Positions 1 to 4,710 of a DNA stretch of 4,710 bases are shown one piece after another; within the stretch, counting starts at the first letter, position 1; each line of letters opens with the position of its first letter. The DNA is taken from positions 1 through 4,710 of IMG/VR virus record IMGVR_UViG_2917393062_000001; one strand, given 5' to 3'. The translations under genes and the position numbers were made by a program. This stretch comes from a virus. Lineage: Duplodnaviria; Heunggongvirae; Uroviricota; Caudoviricetes. The notes below the pieces were generated by a model. That model was given only the letters and a program-made list of their open reading frames with translations. It had not been told where the DNA came from and did not search any database.

Positions 1-69
1 TATCTCGTGATCTCTTGAATCTCTGCTGGCGATAGCGTTAATTCGTACATGTGGTCACGTGCCTTACAG

Positions 70-108
70 CATGACCGCCGTCAATATAATCCGGAGATGG
101 CGGTCATG
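70..108. repeat. Hairpin-forming inverted repeat (catgaccgcc 70-79 / ggcggtcatg 99-108, 19-nt loop) overlapping the stop codon of the exonuclease gene
   Basis: 10-bp perfect arms; the distal arm contains the TGA stop (104-106). No U-tract follows on the minus strand, so it is not a canonical terminator. Confidence 0.6.
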
Positions 109-2590
109 GTTGAACATTAAAATCAGCCTGATTTGGGATCAGTTTTTGCCAGATTGCTGAAACTTGTTTTGCCTGGTGGCGTGCATCATCGAGTGCATTG
201 TGAGGTACACCTTCGAATGGAATAGCCGTCCTGACATCGAAGTCCAGGGCTTTTCCCAGCTCAACGATTGTGCGCACATCGCGATCGTTGTAGTAACGCC
301 ACGGGCAGGGGATCCCCTGCCGTTCATATGAACGGCGTAAAATCACATTGTCGAAGTTGGCTCCATTTCCCCAGATTTGGACAAAACTTTCGCCGGAGTT
401 TTCGTTGATAAATTCCCGTAATTGCAGTAGAGCGTCATCTAACGGGATTTCATCGGTAAAAATGGCAGATTGCGCTTCGCGTGATTGCTTCGCCCACCAC
501 TTTATTGCTTTCCGGTCGATGATTCCGCCAGATGTTTCCAGATCGATAGCTTTGCTGAACTCCGGTCCCATCTCTCCGGTTTCGGGATCAAAAAATTTAC
601 CGCCAATAGAGTTGATTGGCGCATCAGGATTTGTTCCCATCGTTTCAAGGTCGACCGACAGGTGACTCCATACTCTGCTGGTGGATGTGGTTTTATGATG
701 ACCGTTCACCTTAACTAAGGGATCTGTCGCCACGCCAGTTTCACTACCGCTGGAGTGGTGATGATCACCGACAGCATTCTCCTTGTGAGGATGTTCAGCA
801 CCTTCCATTTCTTCAGGATTATTTTCCTGAGCTTCAACCTGATTTTCTCCATTGAATGTTTTCTGATATGTCGCGTCGCCCATCACCGCGCCACAGTCAG
901 GGCTGTTGCCGCCGCCGGTCTGATCGCAGGCGGTGCAGATCTTTTCCGGTTCCTGTTGCGCTACTGGTTCAGGTTGTTTCGTTTCTGGCTCGTTTTGTTG
1001 CGTATTTGGGCTGTTTTGTTCCGCTTTCTGGTCGTTCTGTTCCGTTTCTTGCTGGTTCTGGTTCACAGAATCGCGGGTCTGGATCCCCTTAACCCATTTC
1101 GGATCATTCGGGTCGCTAATCCCTGCAACAAATTCACCACGTGATGCAGCGAGCAACTGATTGGCGTCAGGCTGGCTGATATTGGCTGCCTGCATAATTT
1201 TGTTTACTTCGTCAGCGGTAACTTTTACCGGCTCTGGTTGTGCGGTCGTGTCAGATGCACCAGTATTTTGTTGTGAACCTGAGTATGTGCCGTTTTTGCG
1301 GGCAAAATATTCTTCTTTCGTGATTTCAGTAGCCCCCGCAGCCAGCGCCCTGTCCAGGCCAGAAAGTTTGTTTGCGCGACCGTATTTTTCGCCATCCTTA
1401 TCGGTGAAGAGGAAATAGAACGGCCCCTCACGCTCTACAGATGGTTCGACTTCCACTTTGCATTCGGTTTTTTCGTTGTCCGGAATTGCCGTTTCCACTG
1501 CATCAGCTTCTGGTACTGGCGACGGGAGAGTATTAGTTGTGCTCTGATTTGTTCCTTCATCTTCAAATACGCCCTTTGTAGTCAGGTATTCAGTAATGTA
1601 TTTGCTCAGCGCCACGGGATCCTTGTGAATGTCGATCGGACGTTCACGAACAAGACCAAAAATCGTCTGACGAGTGTAGCGAATGGCATCAGGCTGTTTG
1701 CGCATTGATGCGGAGATGCGCTTCCAGTCTTCGCGATCTTTGGCGATAACTTCATTTTTTGCCCAGCGGTGGATGTTGCCGTCAATGTTTCCGGCATCCA
1801 CGTCTCCAGGCCAGAGAGCGTAGGCCAGTTCGTCGTCCAGCGTTTTCCATGTCTGCTTGTATTCGCGACGAATGGTAGCAGTGACAGGGGGGATTTTTCC
1901 CGCCGGGTTTTCAGTGTGCTGTCGGTTGACTTTGGCGCGGGCAAGATCAACAACAGAAGTATATGCACCACCTTCTTTGCGCTCCTTTTCCAGGCGTTTT
2001 TTACGGTCGAGAAAATATGCCTGAACGTCGGGCCATTTGGCGGTTGGTTTTAAATCACGTCTGGCATCGTTGATGTATTCAATCTGACGTTCCGGATACA
2101 TGGCGTTAATTTCTTTAGTCCGGATAATTGCCTCTGCGAGGTGTCCGTCAAAGGTCATCATGTCGTCATCGCCAAGAAGCCCGCTTGCGTTGATGACCAT
2201 ATCCACGGTGACGTTTTCATGTGCGCCAAACTTAACGAGAACAGCGGCCTGTTTGTCGTCGGATAACTGATCAAAGTTAACAATTTCTGTATTCGGCTCT
2301 GGTTCGACCGGGACAAAGGAAGACGATCCCTCATCCCAGCGGTTTTCCTGCATATATTCGGTATCCCAGGAATCAATGGCAGGGCGGGGCATGCCAGGTT
2401 TATCCTCACAGACAAGAAATTTATAAGCGCAGTCCTGAGCTGCCGGATATTGCTCCAGGAATTGCCATGCAAATTTTGCACGGGCGCGGCGCTCGTCGCC
2501 GGCTTCAATGGCAGTGGCTACAGCAACTGCACCTTCTTCCTTTATTGCCTGTTCGTCCGGAATGGCGGCGCAAATAAAGACTTTACTCAT
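104..2590 (-). CDS. Large prophage exonuclease (828 aa), RecE-related mosaic: uncharacterised N-terminal region, Q/N/E/P-rich linker with a Cys cluster, C-terminal DnaQ-like (DEDDh) 3'-5' exonuclease domain
   Basis: Uninterrupted 2487-nt ORF. ATG at 2590-2588 is preceded by GAGG 10 nt upstream (minus strand ...aatGAGGttaaaacaaaATG). C-terminal motifs read directly from the translation: Exo I VDLET (D647/E649, nt 644-652) followed by INSIGG; Exo II GNGANFD (D747, nt 350-352); Exo III HNALDDA (H797/D802, nt 185-202). The central segment (LLAASRGEFVAGISDPNDPKWVKGIQTRDSVNQ...CTACDQTGGGNSPDCGAVMGDATYQ...) closely resembles, from memory, the linker of Rac RecE (exonuclease VIII). Internal ORFs on either strand look like low-complexity junk. 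Confidence 0.85.
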   Translation of the reverse strand: MSKVFICAAIPDEQAIKEEGAVAVATAIEAGDERRARAKFAWQFLEQYPAAQDCAYKFLVCEDKPGMPRPAIDSWDTEYMQENRWDEGSSSFVPVEPEPNTEIVNFDQLSDDKQAAVLVKFGAHENVTVDMVINASGLLGDDDMMTFDGHLAEAIIRTKEINAMYPERQIEYINDARRDLKPTAKWPDVQAYFLDRKKRLEKERKEGGAYTSVVDLARAKVNRQHTENPAGKIPPVTATIRREYKQTWKTLDDELAYALWPGDVDAGNIDGNIHRWAKNEVIAKDREDWKRISASMRKQPDAIRYTRQTIFGLVRERPIDIHKDPVALSKYITEYLTTKGVFEDEGTNQSTTNTLPSPVPEADAVETAIPDNEKTECKVEVEPSVEREGPFYFLFTDKDGEKYGRANKLSGLDRALAAGATEITKEEYFARKNGTYSGSQQNTGASDTTAQPEPVKVTADEVNKIMQAANISQPDANQLLAASRGEFVAGISDPNDPKWVKGIQTRDSVNQNQQETEQNDQKAEQNSPNTQQNEPETKQPEPVAQQEPEKICTACDQTGGGNSPDCGAVMGDATYQKTFNGENQVEAQENNPEEMEGAEHPHKENAVGDHHHSSGSETGVATDPLVKVNGHHKTTSTSRVWSHLSVDLETMGTNPDAPINSIGGKFFDPETGEMGPEFSKAIDLETSGGIIDRKAIKWWAKQSREAQSAIFTDEIPLDDALLQLREFINENSGESFVQIWGNGANFDNVILRRSYERQGIPCPWRYYNDRDVRTIVELGKALDFDVRTAIPFEGVPHNALDDARHQAKQVSAIWQKLIPNQADFNVQP

Positions 2591-2683
2591 TTTGTTTTAA
2601 CCTCATTACAGATTTAAGGGTGAACAAATCCCTGCCATTGCTGGCATATAAAAATGAAACCGGATATTTATTACGGTGCTGGT

Positions 2684-2875
2684 TTAAAGCCCTGCCGGGA
2701 CTTCGTTATTATCCATGCGAATAACTTTATCAACCGGATAACAGTTGCCGGGAATTTTCTGTTCCGCTGCGGCAGCCATGCACTCTTTCATTGAACCATA
2801 TATACCCGTAACCACATCAACCGGTTCGCCCGTATTAAGAAAAACGGTCAGAGTGAGAGCAATAGCAGTATTCAT
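2684..2875 (-). CDS. Small hypothetical protein (63 aa) with a hydrophobic, signal-peptide-like N-terminus (MNTAIALTLTVFLNTG...) and two Cys
   Basis: ORF in the same frame as track ORF 2684..2929, but I prefer the internal ATG at 2875-2873 because it has AGGA 8 nt upstream and overlaps the upstream stop as ATGA (translational coupling). The longer 81-aa version has no comparable ribosome-binding site. Confidence 0.5.
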   Translation of the reverse strand: MNTAIALTLTVFLNTGEPVDVVTGIYGSMKECMAAAAEQKIPGNCYPVDKVIRMDNNEVPAGL

Positions 2876-3223: not shown

Positions 3224-3269
3224 TTTAAAAAGGGCGGGTATCACAGGGAAAACAAAACGGATACCCGCC
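3224..3269 (-). terminator. Terminator-like hairpin in the leader of the leftward small-gene/exonuclease operon: 10-bp GC-rich stem (ggcgggtatc 3233-3242 / gatacccgcc 3260-3269), 17-nt loop, then TTTTT on the minus strand
   Basis: Perfect 10-bp inverted repeat. On the minus strand the stem is followed by cTTTTTaaag (plus aaaaa 3227-3231). The orientation is such that it would stop or attenuate leftward transcription entering the operon. Confidence 0.4.
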
Positions 3270-3422
3270 AAAAGGTAATCAACATGGGTTGTTGTAGCTG
3301 ATTGCCACAACCGGAAGCGCACGGACTAAGATGCCGGCGGCACGCAACAGAGGGAGAAGTGACTTCGCCGTGCGCTTTCGTGTTGTGTGCCTGCTTTTAA
3401 CCACGTCAGGCGAGGTGGTTCC

Positions 3423-3462
3423 TGTTATTCCCCAACAACAAGAAATTTGTATAATCCGGATA
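3423..3462 (+). promoter_or_regulatory. Candidate sigma70 promoter for the plus-strand zinc-ribbon gene: perfect -10 TATAAT at 3450-3455 with TG immediately upstream; weak -35 (TTATTC/TGTTAT around 3423-3430)
   Basis: TATAAT read directly at 3450-3455 (tttgTATAATccgg), 35-60 nt upstream of the candidate start codons. The -35 is poor, so activity may depend on the adjacent TG or on a factor binding the flanking direct repeats. Confidence 0.4.
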
Positions 3463-3478
3463 TCCCCAACAACGAGAA
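3429..3478 (+). repeat. 16-bp direct repeat tccccaacaac(a/g)agaa at 3429-3444 and 3463-3478 (15/16 identical, 34-bp period) flanking the TATAAT -10 element
   Basis: Read directly; the two copies bracket the -10 hexamer at 3450-3455. Confidence 0.7.
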
Positions 3479-3513
3479 GAGTATGTAACGTGATAGTTGA
3501 GTTCTCAGCAGCA

Positions 3514-3945
3514 ATGTCGGCAATCAAAGAAACTGCGGTAATGGCAAAGGGTATTCTGAATGCCAAAAATCAAACTGAGATAAATTCCGCTGTCAGCGAT
3601 ATGCTTTCAAAACTTACGTCTGTTCAGTTTGAATGCGTATCGCTCATTGAGATGGTGCGCTCTTATCAGGAAGAAGCCGCATCTCTCAAAGCAAAAATTG
3701 CAGAGATAGAAGACTTTCAGCAACAGGCGGAAGGTTACAAACTTAACAAGCTTGATTCTGGAACTCTTGTGTATTCCAAGAAGCAATTTATAGGCGATAC
3801 TGAGATAACAGTGCATCTTTGCCCACAATGTTTTGGAAAAAAGGTAATATCTGTACTGCAACCAATGGAAATAATGCGCCTTGATGCTCATTTTCGTACT
3901 TTTTGCCCCGCTTGCAATAATAAGTTCTGGATGAACTCAAGATAA
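3514..3945 (+). CDS. Coiled-coil / zinc-ribbon protein (143 aa from ATG 3514; 151 aa if in-frame GTG 3490 is used); candidate accessory (exclusion/defence or regulatory) moron
   Basis: Only convincing plus-strand ORF. Translation is protein-like, whereas the antisense ORFs (3279..3566, 3607..3891) are W/Y/F/C-rich junk. The N-terminal ~75 aa are heptad-like and charged (SLIEMVRSYQEEAASLKAKIAEIEDFQQQAEGYKL). The C-terminus carries HLCPQC...(25 aa)...FCPACNN, i.e. CxxC-x25-CxxC. GC is about 40% by hand count of a 60-nt sample, versus about 53% in a sample of the exonuclease gene. A perfect TATAAT lies at 3450-3455. Start codon uncertain: no strong SD before ATG 3514 or ATG 3541; GTG 3490 has a weak GAGAAGAG 8 nt upstream. 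The 204-aa track ORF from 3331 runs through the promoter and repeats and is rejected. Confidence 0.65.
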   Translation: MSAIKETAVMAKGILNAKNQTEINSAVSDMLSKLTSVQFECVSLIEMVRSYQEEAASLKAKIAEIEDFQQQAEGYKLNKLDSGTLVYSKKQFIGDTEITVHLCPQCFGKKVISVLQPMEIMRLDAHFRTFCPACNNKFWMNSR

Positions 3946-3990
3946 TTAACCGCTTAATAAGTTGGGACTATCCAGATTTTTAAAGAACAT

Positions 3991-4014
3991 GCCGGATGCT
4001 TATCCGTGTCCGGC
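3991..4014 (-). terminator. GC-rich hairpin (gccgga-N12-tccggc) between the convergent 40-aa gene and the zinc-ribbon gene; possible terminator for leftward transcription; REP-like motifs
   Basis: Stem gccgga (3991-3996) / tccggc (4009-4014) with a 12-nt loop. On the minus strand it is followed by aTGTTCTTTaaaaa (moderately U-rich); on the plus strand no T-run follows. Contains GCCGGATGC and TTATCCG, which echo the E. coli REP consensus, but it is shorter than a canonical REP. Confidence 0.3.
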
Positions 4015-4063
4015 GCCCGCACTTCATCTGTGGAGAAGTGCTTGAGCTCATTGGTCAGTAGTT

Positions 4064-4186
4064 TTAATCACTCGCGAAACTGGAAAGCGCCTGTTTAAAC
4101 TCACTGAAGCTGAGAGCTTCTTCGCCTTCGGCAAGGCCTTCGAAGTATTCTTCGTAAGCCTTTTCCATGATTGCGTCGAAATCCAT
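4064..4186 (-). CDS. Tiny acidic hypothetical protein (40 aa: MDFDAIMEKAYEEYFEGLAEGEEALSFSEFKQALSSFASD); alternative in-frame starts GTG 4195 or ATG 4228
   Basis: Hand translation of the minus strand (not in the supplied track, too short). ATG at 4186-4184 has AGGTGA 5 nt upstream and lies 1 nt after the stop of the 51-aa gene (TGAtATG). Followed by a GC hairpin at 3991-4014. Position and size match the second tiny gene downstream of the repressor in Rac/Qin-type prophages (ydaG/ydfB class), but the sequence itself is not recognised. Confidence 0.4.
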   Translation of the reverse strand: MDFDAIMEKAYEEYFEGLAEGEEALSFSEFKQALSSFASD

Positions 4187-4536: not shown

Positions 4537-4710
4537 TTATTGATGTTTGTTACGTTTGCGAGCTTCTAGTAGCTCGGTAAATAGGCGATTAAAATTCTCA
4601 ACACGGGCACGGAGTTCGCTGATTTGTGCTTGCTGCTCTGATTTTGGAAGTGCGCGATACAATCGCAACATCTCCAACTCATCTTCCGATAAGTCTAAGG
4701 AGCTGTTGAG
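4537..4710 (-). CDS. dicA: DicA-like prophage repressor, C-terminal 57 codons (gene starts beyond the right edge of the window)
   Basis: Minus-strand translation runs open from the window edge to TAA at 4539-4537: LNSSLDLSEDELEMLRLYRALPKSEQQAQISELRARVENFNRLFTELLEARKRNKHQ. This matches, from memory, the C-terminal dimerisation tail of E. coli DicA (..LSPKELELLELFNALPESEQDTQLAEMRARVKNFNKLFEELLKARQR..). The gene is missed by the ORF track because it is partial. Confidence 0.65.
   Translation of the reverse strand, partial: LNSSLDLSEDELEMLRLYRALPKSEQQAQISELRARVENFNRLFTELLEARKRNKHQ

Follow-up and report, generated by a model that had tools for sequence, protein, structure and literature searches.

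What does a phage protein that resembles RecE do when the nuclease at its C-terminus is not the one that RecE carries? The question is raised by the window analyzed here, a stretch of 4,710 nucleotides (nt) from a virus of the Caudoviricetes (IMG/VR record IMGVR_UViG_2917393062_000001), which is the complete 4710-bp contig PDHZ01000044.1 (assembly GCA_004745115.1) of Escherichia sp. E4930. A gene on its minus strand encodes a protein of 828 amino acids (aa) whose middle is homologous to RecE (exonuclease VIII) and whose C-terminal module matches exonucleases of the Rv2179c/DexA family. An identical protein is present in NCBI under the name 'exonuclease' (Escherichia sp. E4930), and phrog_2082, also named 'exonuclease', matches it end to end (residues 1-824 over 823 positions). 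The answer proposed here is a modular enzyme of DNA ends, in which a 3'-5' nuclease head would take the place of the RecE nuclease and to which no RecT partner belongs. The gene and the elements of its head are:

104-2590, minus strand: intact 828-aa open reading frame (ORF), a YdfE-scaffold/DEDDh exonuclease fusion with an ATG start and its stop codon at 104-106
2601-2604, minus strand: GAGG Shine-Dalgarno sequence, 11 nt upstream of the ATG
149-664, minus strand: DEDDh (DnaQ-like) exonuclease domain of the Rv2179c/DexA family (PF16473), aa 643-814
644-652, minus strand: Exo I motif, D647-L-E649
350-352, minus strand: Exo II aspartate, D747
185-202, minus strand: Exo III motif, H797-x4-D802 ('h' subtype)

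The PF16473 profile (Rv2179c-like 3'-5' exoribonuclease domain) matched aa 643-814 with a score of 210.7 bits (cut-off 27, E 1.7e-62) and was covered in full by the head (positions 2-177 of 177). Whether two sequences or eight were aligned, D647, E649, D747, H797, and D802 corresponded to D7, E9, D119, H186, and D191 of T4 DexA. No catalytic residue of the two-metal DnaQ-like site is missing from the head, and the five residues are conserved in 118-120 of 120 close relatives. When PDB sequences were searched with the head, 8kel/8ken (227 aa, as is T4 DexA) was the only solved relative, and a domain-profile search of the same sequences added one other match, a DnaQ. These matches assign the C-terminal module to the DnaQ-like DEDDh domains of the Rv2179c/DexA family. 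Membership in this family predicts a 3'-5' polarity, which would be opposite to the 5'-3' polarity of RecE because the head is of the DEDDh instead of the PD-(D/E)XK type.

Against 63 distinct orthologues, the ratio of nonsynonymous to synonymous substitution rates (dN/dS) was 0.25 for the whole gene and 0.15 for the DEDDh head, which is under purifying selection, and values of 0.08-0.30 were obtained across every folded segment of the 828-aa protein. These values bear on the possibility that the gene is a decaying, functionless remnant of a cryptic prophage, for which one could cite that the K-12 homologue ydfE is a pseudogene cut by IS2, that this copy carries a C563S substitution, and that a 4.7-kb contig hides the remaining prophage. 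We give this possibility almost no credence, given the intact 828-aa frame, the full set of catalytic residues, the low dN/dS in folded segments, and the occurrence of full-length orthologues in viable phages.

The remainder of the protein forms a scaffold of about 626 aa with the following parts:

1811-2590, minus strand: YdfE_N module, aa 1-260, with a small alpha/beta domain (~3-100) and a helical domain (~105-206)
713-1753, minus strand: middle region common to RecE ('YdfE_C'), aa 280-626, delimited by BLASTP to RecE; the layout of the middle is helical at ~245-345, a disordered linker at 346-385, a beta-hairpin/helix at 388-435, and then an acidic/Q-rich linker
893-937, minus strand: zinc-knuckle-like motif C552-x2-C555...S563-x2-C566, aa 552-566, which is CxxC...CxxC in RecE and in the sister protein described below

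Precomputed Pfam assignments for the exact protein list PF27430 (YdfE_N), PF27432 (YdfE_C), and PF16473, in that order. BLASTP aligned aa 280-626 with residues 294-591 of K-12 RecE (38% identity, E 9e-59); identity was 61% in aa 476-626 (157 aligned columns) and 16-23% before aa 476. K-12 RecE itself matches PF06630 at aa 2-178 (E 6e-98) and the PD-(D/E)XK family PF12684 at aa 615-850. With K-12 RecE as the positive control, PF06630 gave no match in the window protein at E ≤0.1; PF12684 (DUF3799), the family of the nuclease domain at RecE aa ~606-866, gave no Pfam match, the BLASTP similarity ending at RecE residue 591; and the NCBIfam RecE model (NF007259) matched only at positions 270-602, with 266 bits against an equivalog cut-off of 1269 bits. 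Because PF06630, PF12684, and the equivalog score are all lacking, we conclude that the window protein, as judged by its sequence, is not a RecE. An AlphaFold2 model covering aa 1-445 (54 sequences down to 29% identity, mean predicted local distance difference test score 77) contained an additional disordered stretch at aa 209-238, and residues 440-642 are acidic and Q/N-rich. Within the zinc-knuckle-like motif, codon 563 (window 902-904) specifies Ser where 117 of 120 close relatives have Cys, so that one of four putative zinc ligands is lost.

These results sort out what an earlier note on this DNA had proposed. It had placed the three DnaQ-like motifs at exactly these positions and had contrasted them with a PD-(D/E)XK nuclease in canonical RecE, and the PF16473 match and DexA alignment on the one hand and the PF12684 match of K-12 RecE on the other bear it out; the domain search that it suggested assigned an Rv2179c-like exonuclease and not the RecE nuclease domain. 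Its term 'RecE-like' is apt for the middle (aa 280-626) but not for the N-terminus, which is YdfE_N and has no PF06630. The N-terminal ~450 aa, which it called unrecognized, belong to the named families PF27430 and PF27432, with aa 1-257 being 69% identical to the product of the K-12 Qin ydfE pseudogene, and the position in a Rac-type prophage that it assumed has to be replaced by one in an operon of the Qin/DicB type (dicA-like, ydfA, dicB, and ydfD genes upstream).

Does the gene have an annealase partner, as recE has? We used tblastn to class the N-termini, nuclease heads, and neighboring genes of 164 IMG/VR prophage loci retrieved with three queries, and counted 163 of them; the locus left out (L172) has neither nuclease head and carries a Gp157-like gene instead. 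The annealase probes were two RecT types and lambda Bet (plus Exo and Gam), a set that a very divergent annealase might escape. The counted loci were distributed as follows:

DEDDh head, 123 loci (80 with YdfE-type and 43 with RecE-type N-termini): no annealase
PD-(D/E)XK head with RecE-type N-terminus, 37 loci: K-12-type recT overlapping the stop codon in 33, an L173-type RecT in 3, and a contig that ends 2 nt after the gene in 1
PD-(D/E)XK head with YdfE-type N-terminus, 3 loci (L169-L171): RecT in L170 and L171; L169 ends 2 nt after the gene

By tblastn, RecT of either type, lambda Bet, Exo, and Gam were found at 0 of the 123 DEDDh-headed loci, and RecT was present at every PD-(D/E)XK-headed locus with downstream sequence. 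(The head of L171 was missed by the tblastn probe, and the locus was classed by its full-length match to the relative P0141 and by its RecT.) At 85 of the 123 DEDDh-headed loci, the first downstream gene matched a probe for xis or int, typically 60-360 nt past the stop codon; the remaining loci mostly have <1.5 kb of sequence beyond the gene. In a Pfam census based on 78 representatives of all ORFs of ≥140 aa in the DEDDh loci, the top 25 of 81 families included integrases, helix-turn-helix (HTH) regulators, and transposases but no annealase. Because the census shows the top 25 of 81 families, the absence of an annealase rests on the tblastn panels. Two complete, viable phages, mEp460_ev081 (L178) and HannyBb (L179), carry the fused gene directly before xis/int, and, apart from one marginal Gam-like match of 37 residues, the annealase/Gam panel found nothing in their genomes.

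The same holds for the window, where tblastn with RecT, Bet, Exo, and Gam gave no match. The RecT/Erf/Sak-type annealase that the earlier note had suggested looking for downstream is replaced by an xis-like ORF that starts 53 nt past the exonuclease stop codon:

1-50, minus strand: DUF4224 excisionase (xis)-like gene, first 16 codons (MYELTLSPAEIQEITR), directly downstream of the exonuclease gene and running off the contig

At 15 of 16 positions their translation matches the DUF4224 protein encoded ahead of the integrase in E. coli SA31-1. By the tblastn panel and this gene order, the cognate annealase gene (RecT, Red-beta, Erf, or Sak) that adjoins the exonuclease gene in a two-component exonuclease/annealase (SynExo) recombinase is missing here. 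Because the head would destroy 3' tails rather than make them, and because there is no annealase, the protein is probably not a SynExo recombinase.

A related proposal is that the protein is a recombination exonuclease that works with an annealase or recombinase supplied in trans, by another prophage or by host RecA/RecFOR, for example in removing 3' flaps. The scaffold and the operon slot are those of RecE, and the window has a median of 2 matches per E. coli genome, with a maximum of 9, so that complementation between prophages is conceivable; Lemire and colleagues are said to have found in 2008 that the RecE of Salmonella Gifsy-1 works with the RecT of Gifsy-2. However, an annealase is absent from 123 of 123 DEDDh-headed loci and from both complete viable phages, and the partner-specific RecT contact of RecE was reportedly placed by Muyrers and colleagues in 2000 in the nuclease domain, which is missing here. 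We therefore regard help in trans as highly improbable.

How did the scaffold come to carry this head? The closest comparison is with a sister E. coli protein, P0340 (1051 aa; YdfE_N, YdfE_C, and PF12684), which is 80% identical over aa 1-626 and unrelated beyond. At the DNA level, homology to locus L173 and the sister gene ends at window nt ~772, at about codon 606, which defines the junction:

713-775, minus strand: head-exchange junction, aa ~606-626, where homology to the PD-(D/E)XK-headed sister ends

Upstream, the P0340 locus has the same dicA-like, DUF1391 (ydfA), DicB, and DUF1482 (ydfD) genes as the window, and downstream the order is RecT, Lar, DUF1187, Exc, and Int. The break in homology identifies a true module swap between DEDDh and PD-(D/E)XK heads. 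Together with the downstream gene order, the break in protein and DNA homology to P0340 indicates that the exchanged cassettes are the PD-(D/E)XK domain with recT and small genes in one case and the DEDDh domain in the other, with the joint in the linker before either nuclease. The earlier idea of a nuclease-head swap without an annealase partner is thereby upheld, both by the 80% identity of the P0340 scaffold and by the lack of RecT at all 123 DEDDh-headed loci.

The swap is one cell of a larger grid. A search of 1.8 billion representative sequences yielded 10,724 relatives. Scanning of the long relatives with Pfam, together with a further profile search, revealed these combinations:

RecE-type N-terminus (PF06630) with PD-(D/E)XK head: canonical RecE
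RecE-type N-terminus (PF06630) with DEDDh head: P0124, P0126, P0135, and P0139
YdfE-type N-terminus with PD-(D/E)XK head (PF12684): P0141, and P0339-P0343 and P0354 of E. coli
YdfE-type N-terminus with DEDDh head: the window protein
YdfE-type N-terminus with a third head that has no Pfam assignment: P0271-P0338, from Enterobacter, Pantoea, Klebsiella, and Citrobacter

Proteins with the third head are named 'exodeoxyribonuclease VIII' in NCBI (Enterobacter, Pantoea, and Klebsiella). A motif of this head, KKSLTDAIKKALSLLGF, is reminiscent of the Rad52/Sak signature, but Pfam and a PDB-sequence profile search were empty and hhalign against RecT was negative, and a Rad52/Sak assignment would be conjecture. 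Stand-alone Rv2179c-like exonucleases of ~190 aa were also observed at L007:4998-5567 and L008:5037-5609, in a Salmonella phage and an E. coli phage of the YfdP/YfdQ type. The existence of such genes suggests that the fused head was captured from, or was the source of, a free-standing int-proximal exonuclease gene.

A second feature distinguishes the DEDDh-headed genes at the level of DNA:

677-684, plus (non-coding) strand: Chi octamer GCTGGTGG, within codons 636-638, the sole Chi in the window

This Chi lies at the head junction, five to seven codons upstream of the DEDDh domain. Of the 123 DEDDh-headed loci, with scaffolds of both types, 122 have the octamer at this offset and the exception has one mismatch; within 300 nt of the domain start it occurs in 0 of 39 PD-(D/E)XK-headed loci. 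In 58 distinct 128-nt segments, which were chosen for containing the octamer, 15 nt around it (CACATCCACCAGCAG on the coding strand) show virtually no variation, even at four third-codon positions in a row, whereas adjacent positions vary in as many as 40-60% of these sequences. This pattern suggests that the junction Chi moves together with the DEDDh cassette and that the DNA sequence as such is maintained; that Chi promoted the exchange of heads is speculation on our part. The genomes of phages with the fused gene are also rich in Chi, with counts on the top and bottom strands of 7/2 in mEp460_ev081 and 5/2 in HannyBb, compared with ~0.9/0.5 expected from base composition. Several Chi sites are grouped at ~35-37 kb in both genomes.

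What function would fit a head of this kind, on this scaffold, and without an annealase? We propose that the ~626-aa scaffold (YdfE_N domains and the middle common to RecE) and the C-terminal DexA/Rv2179c-family DEDDh head would together make up a modular enzyme of DNA ends in a lambdoid prophage of the Qin/DicB type. Acting at free 3'-OH ends, the head would release nucleotides through the two-metal mechanism that its superfamily uses. By analogy with DexA, the substrate would most probably be DNA, because the nearest characterized relatives and the partners of the scaffold are DNA enzymes, and the scaffold, by analogy with RecE, would bring the head to DNA ends. Both T4 DexA and its E. coli homologue EcD digest DNA in the 3'-5' direction (PMC12153337). 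After induction of the leftward early operon, the protein would most likely trim or blunt ends that have 3' tails, or else degrade linear DNA.

A published survey offers a setting for this activity. According to Zheng, Casjens, Davidson, Amundsen, and Smith (Genome Res 2025, PMC12315714), a Rec module is lacking in 22% of enterobacterial lambdoid phages; these phages are mostly Chi-rich, and the one tested, phage LLS, grows better with RecBCD. The viable phages mEp460_ev081 and HannyBb, with the fused gene, many Chi sites, and no Rec module, fit this class. In the same survey 'sporadic DnaQ-type nuclease genes' adjoin int, although the authors do not class them as Rec-module genes, and 'RecE-2' proteins without a nuclease domain exist. 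In Rec-less, Chi-rich phages, blunting of ends could open them to host RecBCD and thereby lead to RecBCD-Chi recombination. We consider this explanation as a whole moderately probable and its biochemical core, a 3'-5' nuclease of DNA ends, quite likely.

Several points weigh against this explanation. The feeding of RecBCD is a conjecture, which we rate much below the biochemical core, and the passage of PMC12315714 that cites Lovett 2011 says that 3'-5' exonucleases usually depress recombination. PF16473 is named after an exoribonuclease, so that an RNA substrate is possible; the targeting of DNA ends by the scaffold is an analogy with RecE only, and the AlphaFold2 scaffold model gave no informative structural match. 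The C563S substitution removes one Cys of the linker zinc knuckle in this copy, and the tblastn probe set could miss a very divergent annealase. Finally, our search of the literature found no functional study of a fused YdfE/RecE-scaffold DEDDh protein. The architecture is common and not new, being annotated by Pfam, PHROGs, and NCBI in thousands of E. coli prophages under such names as 'exonuclease', '3'-5' exoribonuclease domain-containing protein', and phrog_2082, and the window protein is 82-92% identical to E. coli members of it. The window gene belongs to this known YdfE_N/YdfE_C/Rv2179c-like architecture.

The name of PF16473 points to one alternative, a 3'-5' exoribonuclease that, like Rv2179c, trims or degrades host or phage RNAs (small RNAs or mRNA 3' ends) at induction. 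NCBI likewise names relatives '3'-5' exoribonuclease', and there are many RNases among DEDDh enzymes. However, DexA, the nearest characterized phage relative and a member of the same Pfam family, is a DNA exonuclease, and the other PDB profile match is a DnaQ; moreover, the scaffold is elsewhere paired with a DNA recombination nuclease and RecT, and the genomic slot is typical of DNA-transaction genes. An exoribonuclease is in our view very unlikely.

A second alternative follows from work on DexA itself. Kang et al. (NAR 2025, PMC12153337) solved the structure of T4 DexA, found DexA homologues to be most abundant in Escherichia, and described a stand-alone E. coli homologue, EcD, that cuts DNA modified with 5-hydroxymethylcytosine (5hmC) and not unmodified DNA, protects from T4, and was termed 'HREX'. 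The window protein might accordingly be an HREX-kind anti-phage defense or superinfection-exclusion nuclease that degrades the 5hmC DNA of T-even phages and spares host DNA. EcD digests T4 DNA but is inactive on unmodified double-stranded DNA, and its expression from a plasmid shields cells from T4 (PMC12153337). An HREX is recognized by loss of the equivalent of DexA D90 and retention of the equivalents of the 5hmC-recognizing W152 and of D169 (Kang et al., PMC12153337). In the window head, W152 aligns with Y767, which is aromatic, and D90, a residue of the DexA tetramer, is kept as D719; D169 corresponds to D785 in the pairwise but not in the multiple alignment, and at 24-30% identity this mapping is unreliable. 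Expressed DicB, which is encoded in the same operon, reportedly excludes some phages (Ragunathan and Vanderpool 2019).

Against a defense role stand the retained D719 and the dependence of the D169 equivalent on the alignment. EcD itself is short and free-standing, and the supplementary primers of Kang et al. (PMC12153337) place MIDTET at its start. It was absent among 389 retrieved relatives, none of which starts with MIDTET, and the primer sequence had no exact match in viral or genome contigs, possibly because the gene was synthesized with different codons. A PADLOC search for defense systems gave no match for the exonuclease. The gene is the last one of a repressor-controlled leftward operon, and a promoter scan found no convincing private promoter before it (4 promoter-like sites compared with 6.0 in shuffles), although the promoter/terminator scan says nothing firm about expression in a lysogen. 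Because of this distal position and the lack of a convincing promoter of its own, the gene is probably silent in the lysogen. A defense nuclease would also leave unexplained the 626-aa RecE-type scaffold and its alternation with the RecE nuclease and RecT. We consider an HREX-like defense possible but unlikely.

The proposed DNA-end enzyme can be extended to a bolder form, in which the RecE/YdfE scaffold would be a general DNA-end platform with swappable heads: a 5'-3' head with RecT, a 3'-5' DexA-like head with a built-in Chi, and a third head with a Gp157-like partner. The DEDDh form would then be a RecBCD accessory that blunts ends for loading and Chi switching in Rec-less, Chi-rich lambdoid phages. 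As a whole, this general scheme is decidedly unlikely.

The neighborhood of the gene supports its placement in a prophage of the Qin/DicB type. The window is ~86% identical at the DNA level to lambdoid E. coli prophages of the Qin/DicB type, in the part of their early-left operon that lies toward int, and 4798 of 5426 complete E. coli genomes contain partial matches (median 2, maximum 9 per genome). Upstream of the exonuclease gene, the window contains:

4537-4710, minus strand: DicA-like HTH repressor gene, last 57 codons, open at the contig end
between the repressor gene and the replaced segment, minus strand: ydfA (DUF1391) and a ydfC-like small gene
3238-4077: replaced segment of lower G+C content, with a plus-strand ORF inside
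3415-3945, plus strand: 176-aa ORF, phrog_1244, within the replaced segment
2872-3060, minus strand: dicB (Pfam DicB, E 1e-28)
2684-2875, minus strand: ydfD-like DUF1482 gene (Pfam DUF1482, E 5.8e-19)

The contig stops within the DicA-like repressor gene, and the regulatory region and the remaining prophage lie beyond the window. Homology to the Qin prophage stops at nt 3237, where about the last 6 nt of the dicF small RNA gene remain; an Rfam scan of the window found no family, DicF included. The 176-aa phrog_1244 ORF gave only weak SLATT_5-like and RTasSLATT matches (E 0.002-0.005), and the ORF list contains no minus-strand ORF of >95 aa between 2590 and 4536.

The significance of the swap lies first in what it says about RecE, a protein whose N-terminal ~600 residues have lacked an assigned function ever since its first description. 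The RecE N-terminal region is dispensable for nuclease activity and boosts linear-linear recombination (PMC11611040). Because the same or a related scaffold carries either head, with RecT in strict step with the head, the scaffold would work independently of the polarity of resection and of the annealase, and the 80%-identical scaffolds are natural head-swap pairs for experiments. A very common exonuclease with a conserved junction Chi is also a candidate accessory for the Rec-less lambdoid phages that appear to rely on RecBCD and Chi (PMC12315714). If the general platform were real, it would constitute a RecBCD-pathway phage accessory, a role without described precedent, and would give a first functional handle on the N-terminal 600 residues of RecE; if the protein were HREX-like, it would represent a widespread prophage-borne defense against phages with modified DNA. 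The names now used in annotation disagree ('exodeoxyribonuclease VIII', 'exoribonuclease', and 'exonuclease'), and the first of these misleads on both polarity and partner. Although the core fact is already in public annotation, the co-variation of head and annealase and the junction Chi bear on the RecE N-terminus and on recombination in Rec-less lambdoid phages.

The known systems closest to the window protein resemble it in different respects. Rv2179c of Mycobacterium tuberculosis, which gave PF16473 its name, is a stand-alone bacterial exoribonuclease according to the family description and was not matched directly in the PDB sequence searches. T4 DexA (PDB 8KEL/8KEN), a 3'-5' DNA exonuclease by annotation and PMC12153337, is a member of PF16473 whose DxE, D, and Hx4D residues align with those of the window head one for one. 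DexA is, however, a 227-aa stand-alone protein of a virulent phage that is 24-30% identical and has extra loops, whereas the window head sits on a 626-aa scaffold in a temperate phage. DexA forms a dimer or tetramer, and RecE a tetramer. Closer in sequence are the stand-alone Rv2179c-like exonucleases of Salmonella phage 118970_sal3 and E. coli phage vB_EcoM-720R4, which are ~53% identical to the window head; they are encoded by the last early-left gene before xis/int, a slot described in PMC12315714, and consist of ~190 aa with no scaffold. RecE of the K-12 Rac prophage shares with the window protein its size (both >800 aa), its place at the int-proximal end of a lambdoid early-left operon, a homologous middle that includes the CxxC...CxxC linker, and a C-terminal nuclease head behind that linker. 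The two differ in that the window protein has YdfE_N where RecE has PF06630, and a DEDDh head where RecE has PD-(D/E)XK (PF12684), and in that recT follows the RecE gene but not the window gene. The P0340 gene has 80% identity over aa 1-626 and the same upstream operon genes as the window, but a PD-(D/E)XK head from aa ~620 and then recT, lar, and DUF1187 before xis/int, whereas the window gene leads straight to xis.

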